From positions 230,693-294,692 of the forward strand of contig JAPDPQ010000003.1 in the NCBI GenBank assembly GCA_034506395.1: DNA of 64,000 nt, read 5' to 3'. Under the pieces are notes generated by a model that saw only the letters and a list, made by a program, of their open reading frames with translations, did not search any database and had not been told where the DNA came from. The first letter of the stretch is position 1; every line of letters starts with the position of its first letter. This document shows, in pieces, positions 44,533 to 64,000 of the stretch. The position numbers and the translations under genes are program-made. The DNA is from Candidatus Zhuqueibacterota bacterium. Its GTDB lineage: Bacteria; Zhuqueibacterota; Zhuqueibacteria; Thermofontimicrobiales; Thermofontimicrobiaceae.

Positions 44533-45450
44533 TCAATTCACCAGACGTTCGTCTTCGGTGTCCCACTGCTCCAAGATGCGCCGATTGCGTCGCCGCATTA
44601 GCATATATCCTGCTAAGAACAACAACAGAACGAATATCCAAAGATAACTATCAAAATCCACCAAAAAATGCCATCGATATTGGTGCTGTATGTATTTCAG
44701 CCATGCCTGTTCAAATTCCCAACGATCGAGGCCGATGTTATGGACCAATGCGTCGTCGAATGGCTCTCCTATTGCCAGATGGTTAATGATCTGTCGCATG
44801 GCTGCTGCACCGTAATTTTTCATTAAGAATACCACTGCCAGATAGCTTTGTTGGTAGGCTAATTGAGCCACATCGGCGCGGAACTCAAGCACGTGGTCAA
44901 TTTCATCCAGAGAGAGCAATGATCCTGTCAGAAGGGCGCGAGAGACCAAGCTGCTTGAGGCATATCGCTTTTCGCCAGAATAGTAAACGGCCAACCCCTC
45001 TTCGAACCAGCGAGGAATTGCTTGACCTTTTAACATCTGATGAAGCAACATATGAACCAGTTCGTGGGTTGCGATGCTCAATAATTCGTGCGGGGGAGTG
45101 CTCCAGGTTGGGGATTTGAGGACAATGATATTTTTGGTGGGAACGGCAATGGCATCGCTCCAATGAGGAGCGTACCGACCCACCAGAGCATCAAAAATCT
45201 GTTGTGACGGTGTTAAATAGACGGCGATAGTTTTTTCGAGCTTAATCCCCAATTCTTGTATGAGCTGCTGGTACGCCGATTCGAGGCCTATTAATAGTTT
45301 CTGACAAACTTTGATCTCGTCGTTTTGAAAATAACAAATGAAGTGCTGACCTGGCATCTGTTGCCAGCTCTGATGCAGAGCGCAATAGGGTGATGCGATC
45401 CCTACCAAAACTGCAACTATCGAGCAGCAGATGCAACGAACTTTCCACAT
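44533..45450 (-). CDS. Membrane-anchored MA-clan zinc peptidase-like protein (Peptidase_MA_2-like)
   Basis: 'IATHELVHMLLH' gives HExxH and a downstream 'WFEEGLAVYYSG' is present. There is an N-terminal signal or anchor and a C-terminal TM (LWIFVLLLFLAGYML). Confidence 0.6.
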   Translation of the reverse strand: MWKVRCICCSIVAVLVGIASPYCALHQSWQQMPGQHFICYFQNDEIKVCQKLLIGLESAYQQLIQELGIKLEKTIAVYLTPSQQIFDALVGRYAPHWSDAIAVPTKNIIVLKSPTWSTPPHELLSIATHELVHMLLHQMLKGQAIPRWFEEGLAVYYSGEKRYASSSLVSRALLTGSLLSLDEIDHVLEFRADVAQLAYQQSYLAVVFLMKNYGAAAMRQIINHLAIGEPFDDALVHNIGLDRWEFEQAWLKYIQHQYRWHFLVDFDSYLWIFVLLLFLAGYMLMRRRNRRILEQWDTEDERLVN

Positions 45451-46507: not shown

Positions 46508-47734
46508 TTAGCTTAAGCGCTCCCGAATCATTAGTAAATCAGCTTTTGTCAAACGAATCTGATTGGATTCTTTCAATCGATCTTCACGCCGGCGGCCATA
46601 GCGCCGACGATCAGGGAGTTGCCTTCTTTCGCTGAATGGTTGCTCGTTCCGCGAATTGTCAATCTGGGAACTTTTAAACACATTGGCGATAATTGCTGCC
46701 ACCCGCTCCCGAGGCGACTTAGCTTGAGAAGCCTGTTGCTTGAGACGCGCTAAATAACTGTTGGTATAACTGACAAAATTCTCTTCAGCTTCCTCCAGGT
46801 AGCCCTTTTGATAGAGTCGCTTGATGATGGCCAATGATGTGACATCGCTAAAGCGGCTCTGCTCGATAATATCGGAAATCCTCTTTGCCCCATCTATGCT
46901 CGAAAGGATCTCTCTCTCTTCGTCACTCAAATCCTGATAGGAATTGACCCCAGTCCGGCCAACGATGGTGTTCAATGGCGGTAATCCCTTTTTCAGTTGC
47001 TCCCATTGATTGATTTCCCGCATTCCAGCGGTAATCAATTCCTTGTTGGATTTTTGAAGTCGTCGCTCGCGCTCCACTACGGTCATCTCCACCGCAAAAC
47101 TCCCAATATTCCAACTAAACATCTTCAGCAGCGCTTGCTCGGGAGCAAGATCCTCAAGCAATGCATCGATCACCTCACCATCTTTGACATACACAAACCC
47201 CTCGCGCGAGTCATGCGTCAATCTCACGATCGCTGATTTTTTGCCCAGTTCTAACGTCTGAAGTAGATCGACTAAATTCATTTCCAAAAGGCTGCCGGAA
47301 AATCCCCGCTCCGGTTGAGATTGCGTTTCGCTGAGCTGCGAAAGCTCGGCAAATAATGCATCCACGCGGGCGACCACTTCCTCGACGAAAAACGGCTTCG
47401 CAATATAGTCATCAACGCCAAGCTCAATTGTCTTGATGCGATCATCCACTCGTTTCTGATTGCTGATAAATATGTACGGGATCGATTTCAGGGATGGATT
47501 GGAGCGGATCTCTTTGAAGAATTCATGACCATTGAATTGGGGCAGCTCGACTTCAGAAATCACCAAATCGGCTGGCAGATTTTTCACCATTTCCATGGCT
47601 TTTAAACCATCCTCCCAGCATGTCACCTCATATCCGGCTTTTACCAATGCCGTGCGCAGCGGAACAGTGTAGCTTGGATCGTTATCAATGATCAAAATCT
47701 TCTTCATCTTTTCCAGATCTTCCATTTCCACCAC
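46508..47734 (-). CDS. Atypical response regulator: receiver (Asp-to-Glu acceptor) + DUF4388/PATAN domain
   Basis: In the REC domain, 'KILIIDND...ADLVISEVELPQFNG...IFISNQ...YIAKPF' aligns to CheY D57 as Glu. 'FSGSLLEMNLVDLLQTLELGKKSAIVRL' is the DUF4388 signature. Confidence 0.8.
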   Translation of the reverse strand: MVEMEDLEKMKKILIIDNDPSYTVPLRTALVKAGYEVTCWEDGLKAMEMVKNLPADLVISEVELPQFNGHEFFKEIRSNPSLKSIPYIFISNQKRVDDRIKTIELGVDDYIAKPFFVEEVVARVDALFAELSQLSETQSQPERGFSGSLLEMNLVDLLQTLELGKKSAIVRLTHDSREGFVYVKDGEVIDALLEDLAPEQALLKMFSWNIGSFAVEMTVVERERRLQKSNKELITAGMREINQWEQLKKGLPPLNTIVGRTGVNSYQDLSDEEREILSSIDGAKRISDIIEQSRFSDVTSLAIIKRLYQKGYLEEAEENFVSYTNSYLARLKQQASQAKSPRERVAAIIANVFKSSQIDNSRNEQPFSERRQLPDRRRYGRRREDRLKESNQIRLTKADLLMIRERLS

Positions 47735-47808: not shown

Positions 47809-49947
47809 CTACATCATGGCGGTTTTCAGGCGAATATCCTTAATCGCTGCTTTGCGCATCATGTTTTCCGAAGCGGAACGCGTTGCCGCGATTAAGATTT
47901 TCCGGATCGAAGACTTATCTACTTCATCCCAGGCGATTAAGGGTACGAGTTCGTCCAATTTAAATTGATATCGAATCACATCCATCGTCACATTATTTTG
48001 ATCGAGAAAATTCATCGCAGCGACCGCATAGGGCAATTGGTAGCGCGCTGTTAGGGAATGAATCAGATATGAACTGTATTCCCATGTCTCAGGCTTGGTA
48101 CAATCAACCGCGAATATGAAACCAGCGAGTTTTGATTTCACCGACTCTAAAAAGACATGGAATGGCTTGTCCACCGACACCGCAATTAATTGATATGAAG
48201 TGAACCCATCGATCCGAATTCTCCCCACGTCCAATTGCATATCACCTAATGCCTGGATCTTGGTCGACGTAAAATGATCTTGCGTCAAAATGTCCATCAA
48301 TTCATCTTTGCAATCATCATCCACACTGATCACGACGATATGGTTCTTCAAAGCAGCTTGTTCTGCTGATGTTGCAAATTTCTTTTCATATTGGTCCGAT
48401 ATTGGGGGGCGATCCGCAACTGGAACCCGATCAGTCAGCGAAGCAATGACTCGAGGCTCCTCTTCAGCCGATAACTCGACCGCCTTGCTGGGCGGCTCAA
48501 CAGGCGGTTCAGGTTCAGCCTGCGACGTGAGATCACGCATTGCCGTGGGCCGATCCTCCCGCGCACTGATACTATACTGCTGAATCAGCTCTTCATCGAC
48601 GAAAGTCTCCTGTGAAATTTCAGCCGTCTCATCACGTTGAACTCGGCTCGGCTGGACGAATTCATCCGCTTCCATTGGCTCTGGTTCAATCGGCGCAGCC
48701 CTGTCATCTGGCGCTTTGGGCAGAACCTCGGATGCCTCGCTTTCGGGCTTTGACACGGTCACAGCACGCTTCTCCTGCTCAATCCGCTCAAGGATCGGCC
48801 GGATCTCTCGCTCGATCTCTTTAAACTTAGGAAGCGGCTGACTCTCCAATTCAATCTTATCCACCAGTTCGGTCTCAACTGATTCACGTTCATCTGACGA
48901 GACTTCTTCAGCTTCCATCGATTCCAACTTTTCCGATATCAAGCCTGACTGCTGTTGCGGTAGTGGCTTGGCCTCTGGTGGAATCGTCGGCTTAATGAAT
49001 CCCTGCTGATATAGCCGCACAATCCGTTTCAATGCCACAAGGTCATCCAAACCGCTATCCTCAATAATCTGATCGACCTCTCGTTTCCCATCAAACAGCT
49101 TCACAAAATTGGCGATTTCACCATTGACTCGCCTTTTCTGAATTAGCATTCTGAATGTCGGAGTAATGGTGAATGCGGTTCGCGGTGAGGATAATTGGCT
49201 GATCAACTGTTCGCGGAGTTCCAGTCGCTTGATCCCATGGAGCAGTAACCCTAAGTTACTGACCGAAATCTCGTCCGGCACATCGATCTCCTTGAATACC
49301 ATCGTGAAATAGCCTCGATTCCAGGTCAGCATCTGATAGATCGCAGGCTCTTGTTTGATGTCACCCAGGCTGGCATTGACCACAGCACCATCCCGAAAAT
49401 AGACTTGCCCGGTTCTTCGGCCATTGCTCAGCGTCAATACTCCAGTTTTTCTCTCTACCCCAAAGCTCTCGATCAAATCCGCTAAAGTGAGTTGATCCAA
49501 TCGACCCGAAAATCTCATATAAGCATCCAACTGCTCGCTTTTTCTTCGCTCCAGCCGTCGCAATACCATTCGAATATGAGCGACAACTTCCTTGACATGA
49601 AGCGGTTTGACCAAATAGTCTTTTGCCCCCAATTCAAAGCCGCGCACCCGCTGCTGGATATCGCGCTGATTGGTCAAAAAGATCAGCGGGATCGACTTGG
49701 TGTTAGGATCAGCTTGAAGCCGTTCCAACAATTGAAAACCTGTCAATCCTGGCAAATTCACTTCGGTCAAGACCAACTGCGGTGGGGATTGCTGGATCTC
49801 TTCCCAAGCCTTATTGCCATTGGAAGCCGTAATAACGGTAAAACCTGAGGCCTCAAGGTTCTCTTTGAGAATCTGCAAATTCTTGGCATCCCCATCTGCC
49901 ACCAGCACTGTTGGATTCATCATACCATCTTCTCGCTGTATGGACAA
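47809..49947 (-). CDS. Atypical response regulator: receiver (Asp-to-Glu acceptor) + DUF4388/PATAN + acidic linker + C-terminal P-loop-less Ras-like domain
   Basis: The REC domain reads 'VLVADGD...QLVLTEVNLPGLTG...IFLTNQ...YLVKPL'. The DUF4388 region reads 'FSGRLDQLTLADLIESFGVERKTGVLTL'. The C-terminal ~170 aa ('HIVVISVDDDCKDEL...AVAAMNFLD') resemble the neighbouring 160-aa protein. The start is a TTG. Confidence 0.8.
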   Translation of the reverse strand: MSIQREDGMMNPTVLVADGDAKNLQILKENLEASGFTVITASNGNKAWEEIQQSPPQLVLTEVNLPGLTGFQLLERLQADPNTKSIPLIFLTNQRDIQQRVRGFELGAKDYLVKPLHVKEVVAHIRMVLRRLERRKSEQLDAYMRFSGRLDQLTLADLIESFGVERKTGVLTLSNGRRTGQVYFRDGAVVNASLGDIKQEPAIYQMLTWNRGYFTMVFKEIDVPDEISVSNLGLLLHGIKRLELREQLISQLSSPRTAFTITPTFRMLIQKRRVNGEIANFVKLFDGKREVDQIIEDSGLDDLVALKRIVRLYQQGFIKPTIPPEAKPLPQQQSGLISEKLESMEAEEVSSDERESVETELVDKIELESQPLPKFKEIEREIRPILERIEQEKRAVTVSKPESEASEVLPKAPDDRAAPIEPEPMEADEFVQPSRVQRDETAEISQETFVDEELIQQYSISAREDRPTAMRDLTSQAEPEPPVEPPSKAVELSAEEEPRVIASLTDRVPVADRPPISDQYEKKFATSAEQAALKNHIVVISVDDDCKDELMDILTQDHFTSTKIQALGDMQLDVGRIRIDGFTSYQLIAVSVDKPFHVFLESVKSKLAGFIFAVDCTKPETWEYSSYLIHSLTARYQLPYAVAAMNFLDQNNVTMDVIRYQFKLDELVPLIAWDEVDKSSIRKILIAATRSASENMMRKAAIKDIRLKTAMM

Positions 49948-50683: not shown

Positions 50684-51367
50684 TCATTTGTTATCACTTT
50701 TTGGCCCAGGACGATAGATATACACGGTGTCGACAATTGTTTTATAAACGAAAATGCAGTCGTAATACGTGCTATCTCCTGCTGAAAACCAGTCCCACCC
50801 GCGACGCCCTGGGCTTGATGAATCGGTATTTGGAAGAAAGTTTAGCGCTGATTCATTATAATCCCACATCTCAAACATCACCGTTGTGGAATCGCGCTCC
50901 AGCTTGAGTTTCATCGGAAGGTCTTTATAATTCTTATCCAAGCTTCGCAATAATGATATGAAAATGTTGTAGGCTGGTTTTCGCTCGGTATAATCGTTTA
51001 CCATATTCGGATCTGAATTTTGGGCAACGATTTGAAAATTGGCTTTGAATTCCCAATTGTTCATCAAGTCCTGCGCGTTTTTCGAAACGTATTCGATAAA
51101 ATAGATCTCATCCGACGGATATACCCGCACTAGGTCCTTGGGACCAAATCCATTTCTGCCTACATCAATTATCTCCATCCGGGTCACCAGAGTTTCAGGA
51201 ATAAAGAATTCATCCATCAGCAGTTTGATTAAGCTTTGGTTTGTAATGGTCATCATTGGCACGCTGATCTGAGTGACCCTAGCTTGGGATGAATTGAACG
51301 TTTGAGCGAATGACCAAGGCGCAGCCATCGCACAGATGATGAACATTTTAAAAAGAAAATTTTTCAT
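50684..51367 (-). CDS. Hypothetical secreted protein
   Basis: A signal peptide 'MKNFLFKMFIICAMAAPWSFAQ' is present. The ATG at 51367 has a GGAG upstream; the ORF track extends to 51400. Confidence 0.55.
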   Translation of the reverse strand: MKNFLFKMFIICAMAAPWSFAQTFNSSQARVTQISVPMMTITNQSLIKLLMDEFFIPETLVTRMEIIDVGRNGFGPKDLVRVYPSDEIYFIEYVSKNAQDLMNNWEFKANFQIVAQNSDPNMVNDYTERKPAYNIFISLLRSLDKNYKDLPMKLKLERDSTTVMFEMWDYNESALNFLPNTDSSSPGRRGWDWFSAGDSTYYDCIFVYKTIVDTVYIYRPGPKSDNK

Positions 51368-51576
51368 TCTGCTTTCTCCAAAGTTTTCTTTATATTTCAT
51401 TCCGATGATCGGAAGCGATGAATCAGCCTACTTAATTGGTGCAAAATAGATGAATCCGACAAAATTTCGGCCAGCCCTTTTCATCTGTCCCACCTCTTGA
51501 AACGAATCAGCTCGCGCTTGCGATACTGCTGGCTTTATTAGTTTCTGGTGTAAAATGCAGAGTTGCAATAAGCCGT

Positions 51577-51678
51577 GTCATTCCTGCGAATGCAGGAATC
51601 TCTTTAATACCCTTTATTAAAAATCAAAAGAAGTTAAAGATTAGAGCTGCCTTTTCGTCAAATGGCATACGGCATGAC
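51577..51678. repeat. Family-A palindromic MITE-like element, copy 3
   Basis: GTCATTCCTGCGAATGCAGGAATC (51577-600) is identical to 21127-50. The element ends in ...GGCATGAC (51671-78). Confidence 0.55.
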
Positions 51679-51853
51679 ATTTCAGCTTTTTTTAGAATTT
51701 TGCAATTAAATTACTGAATTGTATCCATCCAGAAAAATCTAACCGACAACTTTAGGTGACTATACCACCAAAAAGCTGTCGGTTGATTTATCTTACCCCT
51801 ATGCTTTTACGCATATTCAGGCGTCCCTATCGACACGATAATCTTGGTCCAGA

Positions 51854-52927
51854 TCATTTCTTCGGCTTGACCTGATCCCACCAGGTCAAAAATACTTGAT
51901 AAAACTCCATGGTCTTTTGTTCATTAGCTGGCAACTGACTGGTGCTGAATGCGAAAATTTCGCGGTCCGTGCCTCGAGTAATCGACCCAGTCCGTAAATA
52001 ATTACTCTGCTTCTTGAAGCCACTGTCGATTAGCATGGTGGATTGATTCCCCTCGACCAAGCAAATCCGAATTTCCCTGCGATTAGGCTTGTAAAGCAGA
52101 TAAAATTCAAACCGGCGATCTCGATGCTGAAAAGTCACTCGCGATGTAAGATCTCCCGTTTCATACATCATAAAACTTCTGACCACAGGAATGAATTGGC
52201 TGGGATGTCTTTTCATCCATTCCATCAGGTCATCGATGATAACTGAAATATCGCTGCGTTTTTTGGCTTGTTCACCGCTGATCAATTGAATATCCAACTG
52301 TCCTGATTCAGCTGAAATTTTGGTATCTGCAATTGCTGAACCAGAATGATGAGAGAGAATGATATTTCTTCCAGCAGTGTGCTGATTCACGGCGACATCA
52401 TTGATTGCAACTGTTTGCCCCACCTGCGTCGGTTCGACTCTAAAAATGGGCGATAGTTGGGTCGCATTGTCATGCAAAATATCGGTCGATTTCTCTAATT
52501 GAATTGGCGGCAGTTGATCCGGCAAGATGGCCGGCTCAATTGGTTGAGAGATCGGCCGCTTTGGGACATTTAGTAAATTAAGATTGGGGTGCTGGTTGAT
52601 GACGGACGTCACATCCCGATTCAGCAAATCAGTGTCGACAATTTCTGCCCGTTCTGGTTGTGCCATCGCCCCATTCTCATTTTGAACTTTCGGCATAGGA
52701 ACTTCGTGCCGTTTGATCAGCTTGATCCGTTCTGGAGAAATTTTCTCAATATCGAGTTCGCGATACTTTTTCGTGAACTGGATGTTCAATGGAGGGATCT
52801 CTGAAGTTTTGAGAAAAATGTACAATAATATGATGAATAGCACGACCATGAGATCGCACATGCGCCGGTAATTGGTGATTTTGCCTTTCAACTCGCCCCA
52901 ATTGTATCTTTCAATGATCCATTCCAT
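51854..52927 (-). CDS. Membrane-anchored protein with an ExbD-like N-terminal TM segment, a Pro-rich linker and a novel C-terminal domain; sits in the TonB position of the cassette
   Basis: 'RRMCDLMVVLFIILLYIF' parallels 'IRLIDVVLI(V/L)LFGF' of the two adjacent ExbD proteins and includes the TM Asp. The linker reads 'PKRPISQPIEPAILPDQLPPIQ'. I see no TonB_C-like pattern. The gap to the upstream exbD is 14 nt. Confidence 0.5.
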   Translation of the reverse strand: MEWIIERYNWGELKGKITNYRRMCDLMVVLFIILLYIFLKTSEIPPLNIQFTKKYRELDIEKISPERIKLIKRHEVPMPKVQNENGAMAQPERAEIVDTDLLNRDVTSVINQHPNLNLLNVPKRPISQPIEPAILPDQLPPIQLEKSTDILHDNATQLSPIFRVEPTQVGQTVAINDVAVNQHTAGRNIILSHHSGSAIADTKISAESGQLDIQLISGEQAKKRSDISVIIDDLMEWMKRHPSQFIPVVRSFMMYETGDLTSRVTFQHRDRRFEFYLLYKPNRREIRICLVEGNQSTMLIDSGFKKQSNYLRTGSITRGTDREIFAFSTSQLPANEQKTMEFYQVFLTWWDQVKPKK

Positions 52928-52941: not shown

Positions 52942-53355
52942 TTACTGTTGTTCCAAATTGATCCTTGGATAGGACAAATTTTTGAGAATCTGATGCCTCT
53001 CACAGAGGTCCATCACATCTACCGTTGTTTGAATCATGGTTTCTGCATCTGGCTCGATCACGAGGATCATCTGCTTATGATTGTTGCGATAATCATTATT
53101 AAGCTGAACTACTCGCTGCTCCAATTCGGCTATCCCTTCAATTTCGTTCGTCGTCTCCTGATTGATCAGCGAAAAATGATGATCATTCTGAATGTTAAGA
53201 AACACGATCTGTTGCTCAACTTCTTGTTTCGCCTGACCATAATTGGAAGGTAACTTGATCTGACTTTTATTCTTGACGTCAGTGATGCTCAAAAATCCGA
53301 ACAGCACGATGAGTACAACGTCTATGAGGCGAATGATTGTTCCAGCTCTGAACAT
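52942..53355 (-). CDS. exbD: Biopolymer transport protein ExbD/TolR
   Basis: The 137-aa protein has the N-terminal 'IIRLIDVVLIVLFGFL' with the conserved TM Asp, and a typical periplasmic domain length. Confidence 0.85.
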   Translation of the reverse strand: MFRAGTIIRLIDVVLIVLFGFLSITDVKNKSQIKLPSNYGQAKQEVEQQIVFLNIQNDHHFSLINQETTNEIEGIAELEQRVVQLNNDYRNNHKQMILVIEPDAETMIQTTVDVMDLCERHQILKNLSYPRINLEQQ

Positions 53356-53382: not shown

Positions 53383-53790
53383 TTACTTCTTGTTCTCAAG
53401 AATCACATCGACCCCCTTGGGAATACCTAATTGATCACATAGGTTGGCAAGCGCAAGAGTATACTTGATTGGCGTATTCCAATTGGATCGGATCCGCACG
53501 CGAGTATCTATTTTGTTTTTTATGTTCTCCAGCCGTTTGGTTTCGACATATTCTCTCAATGTGCCGAAATCGGTGATGACTTTGCTCTCGTCTTCTACCA
53601 AGAATTTCCCCTCTTTGGTAATACCGATGATCAATAATTCCTCTTTATCTGGATAAACATAGGCCATCTGGGTGCTCTTAGGTAGTTCCAGCACGCTTCG
53701 ACTGCTGATTTCACTGATGGAGATGAATCCAAATAATAGGATCAAAACGACATCAATGAGACGAATTACCGTTGCATTTCCGCTGGTCAT
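53383..53790 (-). CDS. exbD: Biopolymer transport protein ExbD/TolR (second copy)
   Basis: The 135-aa protein has the N-terminal 'VIRLIDVVLILLFGFI' with the conserved TM Asp. Confidence 0.85.
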   Translation of the reverse strand: MTSGNATVIRLIDVVLILLFGFISISEISSRSVLELPKSTQMAYVYPDKEELLIIGITKEGKFLVEDESKVITDFGTLREYVETKRLENIKNKIDTRVRIRSNWNTPIKYTLALANLCDQLGIPKGVDVILENKK

Positions 53791-53812: not shown

Positions 53813-55399
53813 TTAGCCCTGGCCTAGAGCTTCAAACTCCAGTCGCGCCTTTCGTATTCCTTTGGCGGTCACTTGGACAGAGTTGAACCCTGGCTTGCTC
53901 CCGAGTGTAAAATATGCTTCCGCAATGCCATTCTCGTCGGTCGTCGTGGTGAAAACGGTTTTCTTCTCGGGAAAATATCCTTTTCCTTTGATGACTTTGT
54001 AGGTGACTGGCAAATTGGGCACTGGATTATCAAATTTGTCGACCACCTTGATAACGAATGGTTCTTTGAGCTCTTTTCCGGCGGCGGAGTTTTGGTGGTT
54101 GCCCGAAACATAAATGACCCGGTCGGGTTCAGTCGGTTTCCCCCAGGCAGTGAAATAGATCGCTGAATTACTGCTCTCTTTCAATCGCACTTGAACACGA
54201 TTTTCTCCGGCCGTACTACCTAAGATCAATTCGGCCTGTGCTAAGCCGCTGGCATCACTAGTTACTTCCTGCTGTTTTCGGCCATTGGCCAGCTTGCCAT
54301 TGCCACTGACAACTTCAAATACCAGCGTTTTGTCGGCGACCCCATTCCCATTTCCATTGGAAATCTGAACCACTAACGGTTTTTCCAGTCGGTTGTTCAC
54401 CATCACTGCTTGATTATCCCCAGAAATCGGTATCAGCTTATAATCGCTATTCCCATTTCGAGGATTGGACACCAGCGAATTTGCCACATCAAAAATCGGT
54501 TCTTTCGATTTCAATTGACGATCGACTGCGGCGATCACGGCTTCAGATAGGTCGTATGCTGGACTCTCCACTGGAGGAGCCAGTTCGGATTCATCATCAG
54601 GAATTGAATTATCCAGCGTTTGCTCCATCTGATGAAGCCTTAATCGGAATTGCCCGGCGAGATCGGTTACTCGATCAATTCTTTTGCGGAAATAACTATA
54701 TGTTTGGGTGGTAAACAAATTCAAGAAGACACTTACTACCAAGCCCATAAGGGTGGTGACTAGAGCCACACCCATTCCGCTGAGGATCTTATGTTTTTCA
54801 AGATCGCCGCCAAAAAAGGTGAGAAACATTCCCCATACCGTCCCTAAAAGCCCTAGCGCCCCAGCCGTGTCGGAGAAAAATGCCATCTTGGCCTGGAACG
54901 TCTGGAAACGGCTCTGCTGAATCTGGACGAAATCGACAATCTCGTTGCTAAATCCTTCGGCAGATTTGCGCGTTTGATAAAGGTCAAGCATGTGCTTGAA
55001 CAGTCGGCTCAACATGCTGTCCTTGGTGTTCTTGATCACCCGGATGATGTCAACTAGAGTGGACTTGCGCAAGTCAAGCCGTTCTAATTCTCGGGCATGC
55101 TGACGATCCAACGCTAGTTCTGTTCCTTTGTAGAACACGGTCATCATCCCCAATATGAAATCGGCAATGATGATATACCGCCAAAATCCAGCCAGCAGCG
55201 TAATGTCCCAAAGCGACTTCAAGTCTCGAATATTGGTCAACAAATCAGGATTCATGCCTTGTCCGCTTGCTTGTGTGGCAGTGCTGTCGCTGGCAGGCGT
55301 TTGAGCCAATGCGACGAATGTCTGAAATGCCACAAATAACAACATGCTGAAAATAGCAGCTAATGCAATGCGCTTGTTGATCATATCTCTGCTCCTCAA
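53813..55399 (-). CDS. exbB: MotA/TolQ/ExbB proton-channel protein fused to two C-terminal Ig-like (Big_1/invasin-like) domains
   Basis: 'FFSDTAGALGLLGTVWGMFLTFF' and 'GMGVALVTTLMGLVVSVFLNLF' are the ExbB TM2 and TM3 blocks. The C-terminal segments 'LVVQISNGNGNGVADKTLVFEVVSGNGKL...SGLAQAELILGSTAGENRVQV' and 'FVIKVVDKFDNPVPNLPVTYKVIKGKGYF...NGIAEAYFTLGSKPGFNSVQVTA' look like Big_1 repeats. Confidence 0.8.
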   Translation of the reverse strand: MRSRDMINKRIALAAIFSMLLFVAFQTFVALAQTPASDSTATQASGQGMNPDLLTNIRDLKSLWDITLLAGFWRYIIIADFILGMMTVFYKGTELALDRQHARELERLDLRKSTLVDIIRVIKNTKDSMLSRLFKHMLDLYQTRKSAEGFSNEIVDFVQIQQSRFQTFQAKMAFFSDTAGALGLLGTVWGMFLTFFGGDLEKHKILSGMGVALVTTLMGLVVSVFLNLFTTQTYSYFRKRIDRVTDLAGQFRLRLHQMEQTLDNSIPDDESELAPPVESPAYDLSEAVIAAVDRQLKSKEPIFDVANSLVSNPRNGNSDYKLIPISGDNQAVMVNNRLEKPLVVQISNGNGNGVADKTLVFEVVSGNGKLANGRKQQEVTSDASGLAQAELILGSTAGENRVQVRLKESSNSAIYFTAWGKPTEPDRVIYVSGNHQNSAAGKELKEPFVIKVVDKFDNPVPNLPVTYKVIKGKGYFPEKKTVFTTTTDENGIAEAYFTLGSKPGFNSVQVTAKGIRKARLEFEALGQG

Positions 55400-55408: not shown

Positions 55409-57160
55409 CTAATTTACAAATTTAATTTCCACAATTCCGCCTGGCACGTGTTCAGGTTTCGGTTGAGATCGAATGTCAATCTCCAACCTTCGCGATATTT
55501 TCTGGACAAAAAAGAACTTTTCATCACTATGTTGCCATTGTCCCTGCTTATCTTGCCAATAAAAAGCATAACTATAAACGTCAGGGCGTATGATATTGCC
55601 ATGATCATCCCGCCAATCCCAATGAACCGATTTTGGAACGGGCGCTTCTGCGGCGAAAGTCTTGATGATTTGATGATTCCCATCTCGAACTTCTAGTTTC
55701 CACTGGCCATGATATTTGCGCATCTTGACTGATGAAATCTTAAAATGGACCGATTTTGGAGTGAGGGAATGATATTGCCGGCTGCTCAGTTGCTGAACAT
55801 CCCCGACCGTCGTCCGATTCGAATCCAATTGGAGCATCGGCTGAAACTGAATCTGGTTTGCTAAAAACGGCGCATGATTGATCATATAATCGCGCAGGTG
55901 TTTCGCCCGCTCTATTGCGCTTTCCTCAGGGATAAAACGTACCGAGGCAATCTTTCTCTGAAGCAGGTTCTCCGCCAGCCAGGACTCATATTTTTTCGAG
56001 TAGCGGGAAGCCGTTATCAGCTTTGGCAGCCGTTGATTCGTCGTTCCGCCATGATTATACAATTTCGATACTTCGACCAGCGAATCGTTTATAGCTAATT
56101 CTTCGGCATCGAGATTTTTAAGTGCGCTGACTGGTACATCTTCCGCCACGCTATGATTGATTTGTTGCGCCAGAATCTCCAGTTTCTCCGTCTCGATGTC
56201 CACAAAAAATTGGGGTTCTATGTCAAATCGCAGAAAATGACCTTCATCGTAGCGGCTCCGCGTCAGGTTAATGAAGTTTTCATCATGACCTAGTTGATAA
56301 ATGATACTGATCTGGTGGCTACCGCTGCTCAGCCGATTGATCTCATACAGCGGATAATCATAATTATAGTTAAATGAAAGCCGAGGTGAAACTTCAAAAC
56401 GGGCTCCGATCTTCGCAGCTTGCTGCACCACCCCCACTCTCAAGGCAGAAAACGCCACCGGCCGCGCCTCCACCAACAAATTCGTCTGCCAATGCCTTTG
56501 CATATAATTGAAAGAGAGCGAACCCGTGAACCACCGCCACGAATAACTTACCCCCCAATCGTAAATCAGCGGCTGTCGGTACTCATCTTTTGACAACGAA
56601 ATATCAGGACGATTAAGATGATCGCACGAAAACCCAACCGCAACTGTGGACCAGGGAAAGAAAATGACGCCTGCGCCAATGCTCTGGGCAAATTTGACCG
56701 TCCCATCAGCAAATACAGGATCCCCAGGATCAGTCATATCAAAATATTTTTGATGATATGATTTGGTGAATAAATTATAGCGTAACCCTACCGCAACTCG
56801 CTGAATTGGCTGCTTTGCCAGCACCAACGAAAAATTGGTTTGGCCATATAGGGGTGCTGTGAAGTTTTGCCCTGTCACTGCCAAGCTAAGCAAGCCTAAA
56901 CTTTCCTCAGGCAAAGAGTAACCGATATAGCTGCTGCGAAGACCGAAATCATTGCCCTTCAAAAAACCCAATTGGTAAACCTTCATGCCCACCATGATCT
57001 GGTGACGATGGAACGGCACAACCGCTGGATTGACGAACAATGTTTCTTCACTATAGCTATCAGATGGATCACCGGATATCAAATTTTGAGCCGAGATGGT
57101 TGAGATTATCACCAACTGAACCATCCCGACCATCAGCCAAAACCAACATGTTCGTGTCAT
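55409..57160 (-). CDS. PorP/SprF-like outer-membrane beta-barrel protein with a ~300-aa C-terminal extension ending in a FlgD-Ig/CTD-like beta-sandwich
   Basis: A signal peptide is present (MTRTCWFWLMVGMVQLVIISTISAQ; ATG at 57160 with a GAGG upstream; the ORF track extends to 57196). The N-terminal half shows '...FVNPAVV...', alternating beta-strand periodicity and 'GSHQISIIYQL', as in PF11751 proteins. The C-terminus reads 'VHWDWRDDHGNIIRPDVYSYAFYWQD'. Confidence 0.5.
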   Translation of the reverse strand: MTRTCWFWLMVGMVQLVIISTISAQNLISGDPSDSYSEETLFVNPAVVPFHRHQIMVGMKVYQLGFLKGNDFGLRSSYIGYSLPEESLGLLSLAVTGQNFTAPLYGQTNFSLVLAKQPIQRVAVGLRYNLFTKSYHQKYFDMTDPGDPVFADGTVKFAQSIGAGVIFFPWSTVAVGFSCDHLNRPDISLSKDEYRQPLIYDWGVSYSWRWFTGSLSFNYMQRHWQTNLLVEARPVAFSALRVGVVQQAAKIGARFEVSPRLSFNYNYDYPLYEINRLSSGSHQISIIYQLGHDENFINLTRSRYDEGHFLRFDIEPQFFVDIETEKLEILAQQINHSVAEDVPVSALKNLDAEELAINDSLVEVSKLYNHGGTTNQRLPKLITASRYSKKYESWLAENLLQRKIASVRFIPEESAIERAKHLRDYMINHAPFLANQIQFQPMLQLDSNRTTVGDVQQLSSRQYHSLTPKSVHFKISSVKMRKYHGQWKLEVRDGNHQIIKTFAAEAPVPKSVHWDWRDDHGNIIRPDVYSYAFYWQDKQGQWQHSDEKFFFVQKISRRLEIDIRSQPKPEHVPGGIVEIKFVN

Positions 57161-57476
57161 TGTCAGCCTCTGCTCGATCGCCCTTTGCCCTGACAATTTT
57201 ATGGCCTCCTCGATATTGTACTGAATTTCTTATGCGACTTTTTTCGAATGAAGAGACAAATAAGCTTAAGTTCTTCTCTCAGAACCTCATCTCACGAGGA
57301 AAATGGTTCTCGGTAACTATTTCATGCGAAAATACGACGGCTAACCCCTCGCAACACATAACCCGGCATCGTAATCAGCCTGATAATACCAAAGATTTCG
57401 CTCTGTGCCGCGACAGAGATCATTTGCGCTGTTGGAACTTGGAGTGAACTTCTCAAGCTGCTCTCATCAAGCAGAG

Positions 57477-60400
57477 CTACCGCGCCAGCACCACATACCC
57501 ATGGGCAATGATGCGATTTTGATCCTCCAACAAGTAGAGATAGACGCCAGGTTGTGCTGGATTTCCATAGCGATCGTTCCCATCCCAGAGAAATTCATAG
57601 CCCTGGGTAACCGTTGTGGTATTGATCATTCGACCTGAGATATCAAACAGCTTTAGCACAGGAGCAACCACGCCCAATTTTTCGAAATTGAAACTTACTC
57701 GATCGTTAAAGCCATCATCGTTTGGTGTGAACGGATTGGGCCGCACTACCACTTCGCCTTCATAGACATCGATAGTCAACACTGCTTGATTATTTTCTTC
57801 GTTGCTTTCTTTGATTATATTATTGGGATCGACCACTAATTTAATTTGATGGAGGGACCGATCGTTAAAATGAAGCATTCGATCGATCGGAAAACTACCA
57901 GGAAATCCCAATATCTGAACCATCGTATCGCAAAGGACTCGCTCATTATCCCATATTATCACTTGAATCGGATCGATTATCGGGGCGGTGTGCCATTCGA
58001 TTTCCGCAGACAGTTGCACCGGCTGATGAACCATCACCTTCTTTTCGCTCAGCGTAAACGACTTAATGAGCAAATCCGGAAATACATCTTTGATGTAAAA
58101 ACCGTATTGGTCTTGTTTCATCCGATTGCTGGGATGAGAAAGGTCAGCCGCATCAATTCTGATGTCCACCCGCTGGCCGGGCCGAAAACCGATCGGGTCG
58201 GTGTAACTGAGTCGGTAGGCTTGGGGCGATCCAGCGATCGTCGGTGAGACCGGCCTTCCCATCACCGCCATCCGAATCGAATCCCTCGCCACTCCAGCGA
58301 CATCATCCTTGATCTCCACCAAGATTTCAGGATTAAAATCAATTCCTCGGGCCTCGGGCGCTGGAACTCGCAGGGTAATGTACGGTGGCTCTCGATCTTC
58401 TATGGTGTAGAACACGAAGGAACTGTCCCGGATGCGATTCGCTGGATGCGCCAGATCGCTTCCCGTGATCTCCCAATGCAATTGCTGGTTGTACAAAAAC
58501 GGTCGCTCCGGTACAAAGCGCCAGCGATAGCTGGTGGAATCTCCAGCAATCTGCGGCGATATTGGTTGCCCTTGAAACTTGAACCGAAGCGAGCTCAAAT
58601 CCACGCCAGTGTGCTGATCTTGGATGATCGCTTCGAATTCTGAATCCAATGGGATATGGGAACCTGGTGGTCCTGGTTTGATCCAAACAACTTCAGGTGG
58701 CAGTCGATCGTAGGCTGTGATAAATTCGCAGCTATCAGTTTTCATCACGTTGGGACCATCCTTTGCCAGATCGTGGGCATCCACTTCCACCAATACGCGC
58801 TGACCATATCCAAATGGAACATTCGGTCGGTGCTCCACCCGATAGTCCAGCACTGTGCCGCTGATGGTTCTATTGACCAGACGTCCATTGACCTGCACGC
58901 GGATGGAAGCGCTGTCGACACCGCTGAGATCATCCCTGACATGAAATGAAATAATGCAATCCGGCGGCACTTCACTCTCCCCTTTGCTGGGTTGATAAAG
59001 CGTTACGTACGGCGGAGCTAAATCCTTCTCGCGCATGATCCGAAATCGGTACCGACAGGTGTCGGCGGCATTGGCTGGATCGCTTTGATCTTCGGCGTAA
59101 ATCTTCACCTCGATCCATTCAAGATAATTCCGCGGCGTTGAGAATTGATAGCTGATATTTAATCGTTTGCCGCTGCCTTCTTGCTCGAAGTTGACCAGCG
59201 CCCCATTGACCCACATCTTGATCGAGTTCGCAGCGACCCCAGCACGATCATCGGTGATTGTGGCACGAACCAGCGGCGTGGGATTCACGGTGGTATCCCC
59301 TGGAATTGGAACTAATGGGACAATGACTGGTGGTTGCGTATCAATTTCGGTTTTAAACCAGAACTCAAACGGCCGCATGATGTTAGGCTGTCGTGCCCGA
59401 TCGCGGGCTGTGAGTACGACAGATAAGCTATCATTATAGCGAAACCTTCTAGGCGGCCCATAGCTGATCCAGTAATCGCTTGAATCCCCACTCAGCTCAA
59501 ATGGAACCTTGATATCGTTGATGGTAAGCTGGATGGAGTTGCGATCTACCCCTGCAAAATCATCTATTAACTCGATAATGACGTTCGTATCTGGATTCAC
59601 TTCTTTGGACTCGTGCAACGGGGCATAATATTTCACCCATGGCGCTAACGAATCCCGAGCGATGATGAAATAAAAACTCGAATCCAATGAATTCGATGGT
59701 TTAACCAAATCAGTGGCATGAATTCGGACCGACACGGAATCCATTTCTCGAAACGCCGGTTGAAACCGATAACGCACTGCGTAAGCTGCTGGTGTCCCCT
59801 CAACCTCCGGATGAATAATCCGACCATTGATCGAAATCTTCAGCGAATCCTTGTCCACCCCTGATTGGCCATCTGTCACAATAAAACTGAGCATAGTATC
59901 GGCTGGGATCTGACGGGCCTTAGGCTGCGGATATAGATCGACGATTTTCGGCGGCTCAAGATCTCTTTTGATAAAAAATCGATAGGAATCTGGCTTCATC
60001 ACATTGGGAGTAAAAGCCAAATCAGCCGCTCTGATCACCACTGATACGGTATCATTGTAGTCAAAATCGATTTCAGGATCGTAAATCATGGTAAATCGTT
60101 CGATGGTGCCAGTGATCCTCGGTTTTACCAATCTTCCATTCACTTCCATCTCAAGCGAACTGCTATCAACCCCCATGTAATCGTCCACCACATCGACTTG
60201 AATATTAGTATTAAGTGGAACATTTGTGGCCTCGGGAGCTGGAATATGATTCTCCGTATATGGCGGGACTTTATCTGGGAACATCTCTCCCAAGCCGATA
60301 TAGGTGCAGATGATGTGGACCTTGCCAGGCGGCACCGTCACAGGATCCCACCACATGGCGACTGCGCTGTCATGAACGATGCCTAACTCCCCATTGGTGT

Positions 60401-62048
60401 TGTAATGCCATTTTGTATTGAAAATATTGCTCCAGTTGGCGATCACAAATCGATCCGGTGGGGTAGCTCCATATCCTTTGATGGTCCCTTGGGCTGAGAA
60501 TAGCACTTTGCGCTGAGTGCCCTCGATGGCGATCCACCAGCTCGGGATATTTGGCGCATGAAAGTCCTGCTCAAAACCAGTAAAAGGATAATTTGATGTG
60601 CGAATCAACGCGCTGTCGTTCTGTCCCAGCATAGTGTCGAACAATACCCGTATCCCCACCTGGTGAGCAACACGATCATTGTTGATGATGATATATTGCA
60701 GTTGGGCAGTATCTTCATATTTAGTCTCAGACCATTCGCTGACCACAAGGGATACCTTTTGCTTGATTTCAAGATTTCCATAGCCCCAGTTTCGCTCTAT
60801 GCTCTTATTATCCCTCGAAACGTACGGATCGTCTAACAATCGTCCTTCTTGACTGCCATAGATCACCTCCTTTCCATCAATCCAGAGCGTACTGAACGAC
60901 GTATAGGGATTCGGGTGGCCGAACAAAATCGCTTTGTTATTGTCGTATGGCGTAATTGGTAATCCGCCAGTAATGCCCAACGTGAAATTTGTGCCAGGAT
61001 AACGATCGCTTACTGCCACTTCAATAAAATCGTTCTGCAGTGTTACTCGCTGCACTGGTTTTAAACTGAAATTGATGCTCCAAGTGGTATCCTGACCTTT
61101 TACCCCGACTGGTGTTGCCTCTTGCGGAGTCACTGCGTTCTGATAATATTCATTATGATAGCGCAGCGGATCAACGCTGTAAATCTGGACGCGGTAGGTT
61201 CCTGGTCGTAACCCAGCCGCACAATAATATCCACGAGAATTGCTGTAACATTCTGAGCTCCATTCGCCGTTCTGCCAATTGGTTACCACCACCCATGCAT
61301 TGGCAATGGGTGGCCGGTCTGGTTCATCTCCCAGCACCAGACCAGCGATCGCTCCACCCTTCTCCAAATAAAAATTGATATTGGAACTGGTATCGCCCAC
61401 CGTCACCTGGATCGCTTGAGCACTATCTTGGGTGCTTACGTTAGGATAATACGTGAGCAAATATCCGCTCGGTAACGCCGATGCCTTCACAACATGTGGC
61501 CCAGCGGGCAAGGCAGGACTGATATAGCTCCCATCGGGTCTGCCATCGATAAAACCCCGTAAGCTATATGTCTTTGCATCAAAAAATCCGATGGTGCAAT
61601 TTTGCGTGATCGGCTGCCCTGCCTTATTGAAAATCCGACCCGAAATAAATCCCCCTCGCTCCAGGTAAAAGTCAATCCCGCTCACATGCTGATTGTTATT
61701 GATCTTGATCAGCGTTGCATCAGACTTCTCAAGGACGTTATTGTAATAGAAATTTAAATAACCCGCCTTATTCTGAACGCGAACGTAATACTGCCCAACA
61801 GGCAATTGGGTGATCTCGTAACTCCCATCATCCTTCGAATAGGCAATGCGCTGAAAGTAGGGACCTGTAAAAGCAATTGCGCGAACTTCAACTTTCGCCA
61901 GAGGCTCATGAGAGGCAGTATAAATGTGGCCAGAAATTTTGCCGTTTTCTGTGGCTTGCGAAAAGATGATACGATGATTTCCAAAAATTGATACTATCAA
62001 AATTGCATAAATGATCATTCGCTGCTGTCGTGCCCGTTGCCAATTCAT
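57477..62048 (-). CDS. 1523-aa secreted multidomain adhesin-like protein with a type-B T9SS C-terminal sorting domain
   Basis: Domain order as read from the translation:
- A signal peptide.
- Three CarboxypepD_reg-like repeats (GKISGHIY...DDGSYEITQLPVGQYYVRV, and so on).
- A central domain of about 270 aa with no motif I recognise.
- Seven tandem Ig-like repeats of about 104 aa (D..PP.I....P......VP.D..I.F.V.DD.SGVD..S......NG).
- A CARDB-like domain.
- The C-terminal 'RPNPFTPNDDGFNDRVSFNF...WDGNDRYGNPAQPGVYLYLL', matching the PNaFTPNgDGiND gliding-motility-associated C-terminal domain. Confidence 0.85.
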   Translation of the reverse strand: MNWQRARQQRMIIYAILIVSIFGNHRIIFSQATENGKISGHIYTASHEPLAKVEVRAIAFTGPYFQRIAYSKDDGSYEITQLPVGQYYVRVQNKAGYLNFYYNNVLEKSDATLIKINNNQHVSGIDFYLERGGFISGRIFNKAGQPITQNCTIGFFDAKTYSLRGFIDGRPDGSYISPALPAGPHVVKASALPSGYLLTYYPNVSTQDSAQAIQVTVGDTSSNINFYLEKGGAIAGLVLGDEPDRPPIANAWVVVTNWQNGEWSSECYSNSRGYYCAAGLRPGTYRVQIYSVDPLRYHNEYYQNAVTPQEATPVGVKGQDTTWSINFSLKPVQRVTLQNDFIEVAVSDRYPGTNFTLGITGGLPITPYDNNKAILFGHPNPYTSFSTLWIDGKEVIYGSQEGRLLDDPYVSRDNKSIERNWGYGNLEIKQKVSLVVSEWSETKYEDTAQLQYIIINNDRVAHQVGIRVLFDTMLGQNDSALIRTSNYPFTGFEQDFHAPNIPSWWIAIEGTQRKVLFSAQGTIKGYGATPPDRFVIANWSNIFNTKWHYNTNGELGIVHDSAVAMWWDPVTVPPGKVHIICTYIGLGEMFPDKVPPYTENHIPAPEATNVPLNTNIQVDVVDDYMGVDSSSLEMEVNGRLVKPRITGTIERFTMIYDPEIDFDYNDTVSVVIRAADLAFTPNVMKPDSYRFFIKRDLEPPKIVDLYPQPKARQIPADTMLSFIVTDGQSGVDKDSLKISINGRIIHPEVEGTPAAYAVRYRFQPAFREMDSVSVRIHATDLVKPSNSLDSSFYFIIARDSLAPWVKYYAPLHESKEVNPDTNVIIELIDDFAGVDRNSIQLTINDIKVPFELSGDSSDYWISYGPPRRFRYNDSLSVVLTARDRARQPNIMRPFEFWFKTEIDTQPPVIVPLVPIPGDTTVNPTPLVRATITDDRAGVAANSIKMWVNGALVNFEQEGSGKRLNISYQFSTPRNYLEWIEVKIYAEDQSDPANAADTCRYRFRIMREKDLAPPYVTLYQPSKGESEVPPDCIISFHVRDDLSGVDSASIRVQVNGRLVNRTISGTVLDYRVEHRPNVPFGYGQRVLVEVDAHDLAKDGPNVMKTDSCEFITAYDRLPPEVVWIKPGPPGSHIPLDSEFEAIIQDQHTGVDLSSLRFKFQGQPISPQIAGDSTSYRWRFVPERPFLYNQQLHWEITGSDLAHPANRIRDSSFVFYTIEDREPPYITLRVPAPEARGIDFNPEILVEIKDDVAGVARDSIRMAVMGRPVSPTIAGSPQAYRLSYTDPIGFRPGQRVDIRIDAADLSHPSNRMKQDQYGFYIKDVFPDLLIKSFTLSEKKVMVHQPVQLSAEIEWHTAPIIDPIQVIIWDNERVLCDTMVQILGFPGSFPIDRMLHFNDRSLHQIKLVVDPNNIIKESNEENNQAVLTIDVYEGEVVVRPNPFTPNDDGFNDRVSFNFEKLGVVAPVLKLFDISGRMINTTTVTQGYEFLWDGNDRYGNPAQPGVYLYLLEDQNRIIAHGYVVLAR

Positions 62049-63729
62049 GCTTTCACCTGCTGTTGCAATACCCTTTTATCGAACAATCGATACCCTATGT
62101 TGAAACAAGAAAAGCCTCTTGGATTCCTAACGCCTCATCAACTATCAACAAAGATTTCGAAACCATCAGTTCATGCGGAAATTAATCACCTGACAATTCG
62201 AGTTATCTCGATCAAACAATCAATGAAATTTTGAAAATGCGAATCGATAAAAATGCGAGCGATGTCAATCAAAGCTTATTCAAAATAAAGAATCGATCTG
62301 GAAAAAGCAAGTCATTTTGGCCCTCACAATGAGAAACCATCGCAAAAGCGATTACATTTTTGAATCAGTCTTTCATTTCATGGATTGATGTCTGACTTTG
62401 CGAGCTCGCGATCCTTTCAATAATTTTTTTTCTTGCCAGAAAAATCTTGCTCGATTTTGATAAGATCAATATCCTCCTGGCTTACTCAATACTCAATCTG
62501 GTTGAATTCTGACCATGCCCCGGTTTAAATCTGAGATATTCGTCCCATCGAACGGCGATCCATCGGTCGATTAATTCGCTTTCGCCAAATTTTTTCCAAC
62601 CTAAAATTTCTCACTTTGATGATTACTGAAGGTCTGTCGTTCCCTCATTTTTCTTGGAATGATTGATCGGCGGGCTGCTCTGAAAAAAAACAGCAAAAAA
62701 GAATGAATGCAGCTCACTCCCCCAAACTTCCGCTTCAGATCCGCGGCCCATTTTAAATGATACAATCGGTCCTTCATGGACTCTAACTTCTTCGCCCATC
62801 ATTCAGTTTGGGACTTATTTGCCGCCGGAACATAATGCTCTGGTTTTCTATTTTGTACCAATCGGAACGTTGAACATTCCTCCAAATTATGCAGCCAGAT
62901 CAGGAAATAAGCTCTAATAGGCCTTTTTTATCGCCCCTTGAAATCTCAAAAAATGACAAATAGCCCACAGTTGACCCTTCCTGTAACGCGAAAAGGTCCA
63001 GCTCCATCAAAATAGCGCAATCCATCAGATTCAATAGAGAACCTCTCCTCTGGCGTTAGGAAACAGCGTTTGACCCAATCCTGTGGTCGATATTTGGCCG
63101 CCTTAGCGACTCTTTGGCTCATCGCGATTCCCAAATATCAATGCTATTGGCATTCTTTGGTGCTTTATCAGCCGTTTATTGCTCCGTTTGAACAAAAATC
63201 ATCCCTTCACCTGCAATTTCCATGCCGATGATCGTAATTTGCTACAATTAAGGCAAGCCGATTTTTCTATGGATCAGAAGTTAATTCGAGTGGCAAATAA
63301 AGGCGAGTCTTCTTGACCACCAGATGGTTATATTGTTACGATCGAAAACAAGCATTCATTTCGCAAATCAAATTGAACAATTTCGAAATCAACAAATAGA
63401 TCGGGGCATGAGATCTGACAATTCTTCTAAAATTGTTTTTAAAAAAGCTAATCGCCGAGATTCAATTGCTTGGTTTTCATTAAAGGCTTGAGAATATATT
63501 GAACACCTGTTCGAAAATCATGCAGAAAATTCACAATTCCCTGGTCGAAACAAAAGCAGTTCGATCGATCGGCAATTTAAATTCTTCGTTTTGATTGAAA
63601 TTTTACTTCTGGCTTCCAACTGAAAGATTTGGATAAAAACGAGCATCGCGTTTTTGTGTCTTCCGATATTGTGGAGTTAAATAGTGCCTGAGCGAAAATC
63701 CAGCTCTCTGGCATTTCGATCGCAGGCAT

Positions 63730-63784
63730 AAATCTGTGACCACAATGATCTCAATGTAACCAGATTCCTCACTTCGTTCGGAAT
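63730..63784. repeat. Family-B repeat, copy 2
   Basis: AAATCTGTGACC...AACCAGATTCCTCACTTCGTTCGGAAT; compare 35981-36035. Confidence 0.5.
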
Positions 63785-63930
63785 GGCCCTCTTAGGAAAG
63801 ATTTAATAGTCGCCATTCAAGCAAGAAATTGATTGGGGATCTCAATTGCCGAAAACCACCCTGGCCAATGAGACCTCCAAAGAAGCGATAAACTAAATTG
63901 ATGAAGCTCGAAGCGAACGAACTGCTCTTT

Positions 63931-64000
63931 CTATTTCATCAACACCATTTTTAATGAGGACTGAATTTCTCCTGCCCGTACGCGAGCAAAATAGATGCCG
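63931..64000 (-). CDS. 3' end of a gene encoding a protein with a type-A T9SS (Por) C-terminal sorting domain; the rest lies outside the window
   Basis: The minus-strand frame reads ...GIYFARVRAGEIQSSLKMVLMK followed by a stop (TAG at 63933-63931). 'G(I/V)YF.R...G......K.VL.K' is the canonical last strand pair of type-A CTDs. The fragment is too short to appear in the ORF track. Confidence 0.6.
   Translation of the reverse strand, partial: GIYFARVRAGEIQSSLKMVLMK

Follow-up and report, generated by a model that had tools for sequence, protein, structure and literature searches.

Can a pair of immunoglobulin (Ig)-like domains of the Big_1 type, which in intimin, invasin and FdeC form extracellular rods on outer-membrane adhesins, serve on the end of an inner-membrane channel that is predicted to face the cytoplasm? 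This question is raised by a gene on the minus strand of a 64,000-nucleotide stretch of the genome of Candidatus Zhuqueibacterota bacterium, an uncultured member of KSB1 (assembly GCA_034506395.1, contig JAPDPQ010000003.1, positions 230,693 to 294,692; hereinafter, the window, whose numbering is used throughout). The gene, at 53813-55399, encodes a protein, here called ExbB-Ig, that by sequence belongs to the MotA/TolQ/ExbB superfamily and in which three transmembrane (TM) helices are followed by a tail with two such domains. The fusion and the gene cluster in which it resides form an undescribed, conserved arrangement: a full-text literature search turned up neither the cluster nor any ExbB/TolQ protein described as having Ig-like domains. 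The architecture and the cluster are solid, and the assignment of the tail to a compartment rests on topology rules. The interpretation that we favor, with somewhat more confidence than doubt, is that ExbB-Ig is the pentamer subunit of a divergent 5:2 motor, that its tethered, cytoplasmic Ig domains dock or anchor this motor, and that a membrane-anchored protein, p357, couples it to a PorP-like outer-membrane protein.

The open reading frame (ORF) consists of 528 codons starting from TTG. However, translation probably begins at the ATG at 55384, five codons downstream (55384-55399), because close homologs are 523 amino acids (aa) long and the Met at position 6 of the ORF is almost invariant in the alignment of the homologs retrieved. 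Gene callers yield 523 aa for this gene. In the numbering of the ORF, residues 6-32 (55304-55384) comprise a signal-like helix, apparent both from hydropathy and in the AlphaFold2 model, that ends in ALAQ/TP, a putative cleavage site read from the sequence, and would place the N-terminus in the periplasm. The MotA/TolQ/ExbB core, residues 66-264 (54608-55204), encompasses TM1, a cytoplasmic loop, TM2, and TM3 with its cytoplasmic helical extension. Beyond this extension lies the tail of 264 residues, namely a disordered, acidic linker of 56 residues (265-320; 54440-54607), in which Glu, Pro, Ser and Ala abound, and two domains of about 100 residues each, the first of the Big_1 type (residues 321-423; 54131-54439) and the second of the Big_1/Invasin_D3 type (residues 424-528; 53816-54130). 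Thus, the 528-codon ORF of the original prediction, which was made from these letters alone, stands, but the protein is likely to be 523 aa long and the tail is somewhat shorter than the approximately 270 residues given there.

Several methods agree on the domain assignments. In Pfam, MotA_ExbB is matched by residues 127-244 (54.9 bits vs a cut-off of 22.9) and Big_1 (PF02369) by two stretches (48.7 bits vs 34.9), which are overlapped by matches to Invasin_D3 and MG4. Kyte-Doolittle hydropathy locates the signal-like helix at 11-29 and the TM segments at approximately 66-84, 179-197 and 211-229. The AlphaFold2 model, with a mean predicted local distance difference test score (pLDDT) of 85.7 and a predicted template modeling score (pTM) of 0.48, contains ExbB-type helices at 72-106, 150-196 and 202-264, a disordered segment at 265-320, and two beta-sandwiches at 321-421 and 425-527 (pLDDT at least 93). 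The family alignment profile matches the Serratia ExbB structures 6ye4 and 7ajq. The closest structural neighbors of the Ig pair in a Foldseek search of the PDB are the D0-D1 domains of intimin (6tpl, 8e-11), followed by InvE, InvD, FdeC and invasin (1cwv, 7e-08), and the two domains are tandem duplicates of each other (29% identity, E=5e-16). Hence the original claim of an ExbB/MotA subunit with a signal-like N-terminus, three TM segments and two Big_1-like repeats is borne out by Pfam, hydropathy and structure modeling alike. In this superfamily, a ring of conserved Thr residues has a role in the TM2-TM3 pore hairpin; in the homolog alignment, there is no variation at Thr187 in TM2 and Thr216 in TM3, and almost none at T178 and T215. 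Taken together with the Asp in the TM helix (RLIDVVL) of both ExbD paralogs encoded next to exbB-Ig, the invariant Thr residues indicate a competent channel.

Does selection act on the tail? Conservation, in bits per alignment column, is 3.96 for TM2, 3.49 for TM3, 2.51 for TM1, 2.42 for Ig2, 2.12 for the cytoplasmic loop, 2.03 for Ig1 and 1.00 for the linker, so that Ig2 is the most conserved region of ExbB-Ig after TM2, TM3 and TM1. From these values, the Ig domains, the distal one above all, are subject to purifying selection, and the linker is not. Among homologs, the linker varies from 19 to 158 residues, and the longer homologs gain linker only, which rules out the idea that they might contain extra domains telling of the compartment. 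A variable linker combined with a constant, conserved distal domain is the mark of a binding module on a tether. Both Ig domains are basic in this protein (pI 9.2 each), a value that holds for the window protein and not for the family, so a conserved basic charge for binding membranes or nucleic acids is ruled out as well.

The tail has many relatives elsewhere. A search with the tail alone among 1.84 billion representative proteins produced 11,661 matches, the best of which lie in proteins 1,000-5,800 aa long that contain 5-31 repeats each. A signal-like hydrophobic N-terminus is present in 108 of the 135 tail relatives with a complete N-terminus, and the scanned relatives also hold FlgD_ig, dockerin, FG-GAP or LRR modules. 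Thus, as the original prediction assumed, domains of this type are normally extracytoplasmic; the pool from which this domain type is drawn is overwhelmingly extracytoplasmic, and hence the oddity of its position here. A source close at hand, the Ig-like repeats of the giant protein encoded in the same cluster, was considered and ruled out, there being no similarity between these and the tail (E=0.75). In one 2106-aa protein (P0194), tail-type Ig repeats occur together with WD40 beta-propellers, which dominate the protein and are an unusual partner of Big_1; this could be another non-secreted context of these repeats.

The survey of the fusion yielded 264 homologs of ExbB-Ig, with full-length coverage down to 29% identity, and in over 100 independent assemblies, spread over several phyla, a single ORF encodes the fusion. 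The loci in which it is complete belong to KSB1, Calditrichota, Rhodothermales, Balneolales and Gemmatimonadota/Longimicrobiales, and one carrier, a Balneolaceae isolate (locus L020), is apparently cultured. Orthologous ExbB proteins of 264-327 aa that lack the tail are encoded in related clusters of other KSB1 genomes, Zixibacteria and Krumholzibacteriota. Because such tail-less orthologs exist and because tail-bearing and tail-less cores are mostly separate in a rough neighbor-joining tree of the cores, the tail is an accessory, gained or lost on a few occasions, rather than a core part of the channel. A second cluster type with a tail-less ExbB is found in L021, L022, L024, L025 and L026 (e.g. 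L024 9920-14325), where 2-5 signal-peptide proteins with C-terminal domains (CTDs) of the T9SS (type IX secretion system) type, one of them resembling vWA by sequence appearance, are encoded between exbB and exbD. When these clusters (L021-L026), with a short ExbB followed by separate genes, were compared with the fusion as possible split versions of it, the signal-peptide/CTD proteins proved to be unrelated to the tail.

On which side of the membrane, then, is the tail located? Topology rules make the cytoplasmic side most likely. Across 67 aligned homologs, the number of Lys and Arg per residue is 0.22 after TM1, 0.17 before TM2 and 0.17 after TM3 in the cytoplasmic flanks, compared with 0.10 on the TM1 side and 0.12 in the TM2-TM3 loop for the periplasmic flanks, a distribution that fits the canonical ExbB/TolQ topology with the N-terminus outside and the C-terminus inside. 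In the AlphaFold2 model, TM3 is prolonged into a long helix that reaches residue 264, in the manner of solved ExbB structures. Past residue 240 of ExbB-Ig, the best 19-residue Kyte-Doolittle mean is 0.64, i.e. there is no fourth TM helix, nor is there one in the tails of 117 homologs, where the most hydrophobic windows are Ig beta-strands with Gly, Asp or Glu. The opposite view, that the tail reaches the periplasm through an unconventional topology or by some other translocation and that the Ig domains contact ExbD, p357, the tetratricopeptide repeat (TPR) lipoproteins or the extension of the PorP-like protein, could appeal to the nearest Big_1 repeats, found in giant signal-like proteins with FlgD_ig, dockerin or FG-GAP modules, to the fact that all other products of the cluster are envelope proteins with a signal peptide, a lipobox or a TM anchor, and to the lack of a conserved cytoplasmic partner in the neighborhood. 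It has to contend, however, not only with the missing fourth helix but also with a flank after TM3 that is rich in Lys and Arg, in common with the other cytoplasmic flanks, with the ExbB-typical continuation of TM3, and with the orientation of the TM2-TM3 hairpin, which, in this family, is set by pairing with ExbD, itself oriented by its periplasmic domain. Moreover, we know of no pathway that would export a hydrophilic C-terminal tail of 260 residues devoid of a TM segment. We therefore regard a periplasmic tail as improbable and, of the two options left by the original prediction, a cytoplasmic Ig platform or an unconventional topology, we favor the former. An extracytoplasmic location is usual for Big_1 domains and not a formal part of their definition; the topology rules point to the cytoplasm here, and most relatives of the tail are signal-peptide proteins. 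Still less credence, indeed next to none, can be given to the notion that the fusion is an artefact, a frameshift or an assembly error joining two genes, or else a decaying relic devoid of function: nothing but the oddity of the architecture speaks for it, and it is at variance with the one-ORF architecture of the many independent assemblies in several phyla, with the conservation of Ig2, which, TM2, TM3 and TM1 apart, exceeds that of most of the ExbB core, and with the high confidence with which both Ig domains are modeled. In short, the three flaws that the original prediction anticipated, a fourth TM helix, a tail without the Ig fold and a frameshift, were all looked for and none was found.

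If the tail is indeed cytoplasmic, what could it be doing there? In this superfamily, a pentamer of ExbB, TolQ or MotA surrounds a dimer of ExbD, TolR or MotB, and proton flow turns one against the other. In the 5:2 ion-driven motors (MotAB, ExbBD, TolQR, GldLM, ZorAB), attachments decide which part turns and which stays still, and this is set or regulated at the cytoplasmic face of the pentamer, by FliG in the case of MotA and by a proposed anchor in the case of GldL. By analogy with the family, each of the five ExbB-Ig subunits would hang its variable linker and two Big_1-type domains into the cytoplasm, and the tail would act as a tethered protein-docking module that anchors, clusters or localizes the pentamer or else recruits a cytoplasmic regulator. 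Such roles are preferable to the driving of a rotor because a flexible linker cannot transmit torque. The Ig tail also appears to be the only sizeable cytoplasmic element of the system, since the other cluster products are, as noted, envelope proteins. A close rival to docking is a role in cis, whereby the ten Ig domains, likewise cytoplasmic, would fold back to brake or gate the cytoplasmic domain of ExbB, or would bind the tails of neighboring motors and thereby link these into arrays. The absence of an encoded partner in the cluster would be naturally accommodated in this case, as would the flexible linker and the tail-less sister systems, which fit a modulatory add-on; the cytoplasmic faces of 5:2 motors are also established places of regulation, an example being FlgX, which binds the cytoplasmic region of stator units (PMC11725899). 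Yet, the monomer model shows no fixed contact between the tail and the core (a pTM as low as 0.48 against the pLDDT of 85.7), and the high conservation of Ig2 is equally well explained by an external partner. All told, we consider action within the motor rather unlikely and continue with the docking module as the preferred reading.

The rest of the putative machine is encoded around exbB-Ig in a co-directional, tightly packed cluster on the minus strand, with core intergenic gaps of 14-27 bp. The cluster opens with a giant surface protein of 1523 aa (57477-62048) that combines CarboxypepD_reg and Big_5 domains with a C-terminal sorting domain of the T9SS CHU_C type (type B), followed by a PorP/SprF-like outer-membrane protein of 595 aa (55409-57196) with a C-terminal extension of approximately 295 residues and, after exbB-Ig, by two ExbD paralogs of the PF02472 family (36.8 and 47.3 bits), 135 aa (53383-53790) and 137 aa (52942-53355), the first of which begins 22 bp past exbB-Ig. 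Next come p357 (51854-52927) and p238, a secreted protein of 238 aa (50684-51400), at the cluster end. The Pfam matches of the two large proteins exceed the cut-offs (PorP_SprF, 29.8 bits vs 22.3; CHU_C, 27.9 vs 27), and the corresponding NCBIfam models score below theirs (39.9 vs 90.55 and 22.3 vs 35). The order giant CTD protein, PorP-like protein, ExbB, ExbD, ExbD, p357, in most lineages a TPR lipoprotein, and p238 recurs in most of the 29 loci compared, and the adjacency of the genes for the PorP-like protein and the CHU_C/type-B CTD protein is also kept in most of them. At roughly double the usual length, the PorP/SprF-like protein has its barrel region at approximately 28-301 and lacks a Cys-X-Cys motif like that of SprF; in its homolog from L020 (5727-7511), a weak FlgD_ig-like match is located at the end of the extension. 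In most lineages, TPR proteins with lipoboxes are encoded after p357 and before the giant protein; tblastn did not find these genes in the window. A 453-bp non-coding gap (51401-51853) occupies the expected position of the first TPR lipoprotein gene, and no long ORF is present upstream of the giant gene (62049-64000).

The two proteins that complete the cluster have no recognizable relatives among known families. The p357 protein consists of a TM helix, approximately 150 disordered residues and a C-terminal globular domain modeled as a six-stranded sheet with flanking helices (pLDDT ~87-90), for which Foldseek detects no PDB neighbor at E<0.001 and nothing below E=0.019; there is no Pfam, NCBIfam or PDB sequence match either. 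Trp237, Gly314 and Trp349 are invariant in its family. With no match by family, PDB sequence or fold, p357 is ruled out as a true TonB or TolA; it is TonB/TolA-shaped but lies outside those families. There are precedents for such proteins: new transducers composed of a TM helix, a linker and a CTD have been described beside tolQ/tolR pairs and TPR genes (PMC12204202). For p238, no Pfam, NCBIfam or PDB match was obtained, and it is kept at the cluster end in 20 of the 29 loci; in Gemmatimonadota, its homolog lies within a protein of 676-725 aa (L007 5067-7244; L009 14568-16598).

How does this system relate to the known motors? By the standards of NCBIfam, ExbB-Ig falls far below the ExbB equivalogs TIGR02797 (17.3 bits vs 206.2) and TIGR02805 (22.0 vs 135.35), below the TolQ equivalog TIGR02796 (24.8 vs 221), still its best match, and below the PomA threshold. 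Among the cluster proteins scanned, there was no match to the TolB or Pal families (Pfam, NCBIfam) and none to GldL, GldM, GldK or GldN (Pfam, NCBIfam, E<=0.01). The system lacks the traits that define Ton, Tol-Pal and GldLM, while sharing something with each. ExbB-Ig resembles the ExbB of the TonB-ExbB-ExbD system (e.g. Serratia marcescens ExbB, PDB 6YE4, 7AJQ) in the PF01618 core and in its three TM helices, of which TM2 and TM3 bear conserved Thr residues; the signal peptide and the periplasmic N-terminus are features of the Serratia protein, too. The gene order exbB-exbD-exbD-transducer is common in FCB (Fibrobacteres-Chlorobi-Bacteroidetes) bacteria, and the TM Asp of ExbD is shared. Unlike TonB-system ExbB, however, ExbB-Ig adds a C-terminal tail of 264 residues with two Ig-like domains, the transducer here has no TonB_C domain, and no TonB-dependent transporter is encoded in the cluster. 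With TolQ and AglR, of the Tol-Pal and Myxococcus Agl-Glt systems, there is in common a TolQ-like channel with TolR/ExbD-like partners, and the cluster likewise encodes TPR proteins and an extended periplasmic protein with a TM anchor, whereas no homologs of TolB, Pal or Glt proteins are recognized here and TolQ and AglR have no Ig domains. With the Big_1 domains of intimin, invasin and FdeC, the two tail domains share the fold and the sequence family.

The closest functional analogy for the tail is the cytoplasmic tail of GldL, which is functionally important and has been proposed to anchor the pentamer (PMC9389320). Like GldL/PorL, ExbB-Ig would be a 5:2-motor pentamer subunit with a C-terminal cytoplasmic region, and both are genetically linked to a gene of the PorP/SprF family, proteins that are mechanically coupled to the GldLM/PorLM motor; in P. 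gingivalis, porP precedes porKLMN. GldL differs from ExbB-Ig in having two TM helices, no Ig domains and GldM as the partner, as opposed to a three-TM, ExbB-like core with ExbD. Another analog is ZorA, from the anti-phage system Zorya: this MotA/ExbB-like pentamer signals or recruits by means of its long C-terminal tail in the cytoplasm, although in this case the tail is a long helical bundle and the gene context is defense.

Synteny suggests that the PorP-like protein and its type-B-CTD cargo are what the motor serves, p357 bridging the periplasm; the cluster looks like a new envelope-spanning machine, and this set of envelope genes is conserved in non-Bacteroidota lineages of the FCB superphylum. 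The proposed workings can be outlined as follows, the stoichiometry and the coupling being deduced from the known members of the family and from synteny. The ExbB-Ig pentamer, each subunit in the ordinary ExbB topology with the N-terminus outside, three TM helices and the C-terminus inside, would work with the two ExbD paralogs as the axle, and p357, through its TM anchor, long disordered periplasmic linker and globular domain, would link the motor to the PorP/SprF-like protein of the outer membrane, which in turn would carry the giant type-B-CTD surface protein. There is a parallel in Flavobacterium, where SprF, through its periplasmic C-tail, fastens the adhesin carrier to a track that the GldLM 5:2 motor drives (PMC12635249). 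A further step can be taken, tentatively and with considerable doubt: ExbB-Ig, ExbD1, ExbD2 and p357 may together power a trans-envelope machine, so far undescribed, in KSB1, Calditrichota, Rhodothermota/Balneolota and Gemmatimonadota, one that pulls on, moves or tensions a PorP/SprF-anchored T9SS type-B surface protein independently of GldLM, with the ten Ig domains as a stator anchor or clutch on a cytoplasmic structure and the ExbD axle or p357 doing the work.

Several observations weigh against the scenario of a docked motor coupled to PorP. Ig repeats of this type are otherwise found overwhelmingly in secreted giant proteins, the charge of the Ig domains is not conserved across the family, and all other cluster products belong to the envelope. 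No conserved gene for a cytoplasmic partner was found in the neighborhood; the sole nearby cytoplasmic candidates, two REC-PATAN response regulators, are kept only in close relatives. The tail is not essential to the machine, given the tail-less sister clusters. Furthermore, p357 has neither the TonB_C fold nor, across 24 homologs, a conserved SHLS/His motif in its TM helix, and the Gemmatimonadota loci and one Rhodothermaceae locus have no PorP gene upstream, yet keep the module from ExbB-Ig to p238.

The regulators just mentioned, of the REC-PATAN (DUF4388/PatA_N) architecture, are encoded just downstream of the cluster at 47809-49947 and 46508-47734, both on the minus strand, and the C-terminal ~460 aa of the former have no family match. 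Their linkage to the cluster is retained in L001, L081 and L082 and not in other phyla; PATAN regulators are tied to the control of surface motility in other bacteria. A few genes further downstream lie outer-membrane biogenesis genes, for a lipid A biosynthesis acyltransferase (43587-44519, minus strand) and an MsbA-like ABC exporter (41543-43453, minus strand), with a gene for a Peptidase_MA_2 protein (44533-45450) between these and the cluster side. The Peptidase_MA_2 and acyltransferase genes are also present in L081 and L082, loci that end before the position of the ABC exporter.

What does the finding imply for the family and for the lineages that carry it? The tethered Ig pair on the cytoplasmic end of ExbB is a handle for finding the cytoplasmic partner of the motor, and the apparently cultured Balneolaceae carrier makes the question open to experiment. 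If the cytoplasmic location holds true, an intimin/invasin-type Ig domain would be documented in an unusual use, inside the cell; if, in addition, the Ig domains are a stator anchor or a clutch, a 5:2 motor would be grounded in a new manner, with Big_1 domains at work in the cytoplasm, which is rare. More broadly, the cluster suggests that non-Bacteroidota lineages couple a PorP/SprF-type carrier and a giant surface protein to a motor of the ExbBD type, not to GldLM, and that this coupling would run through p357, a transducer with a fold not seen in the PDB.

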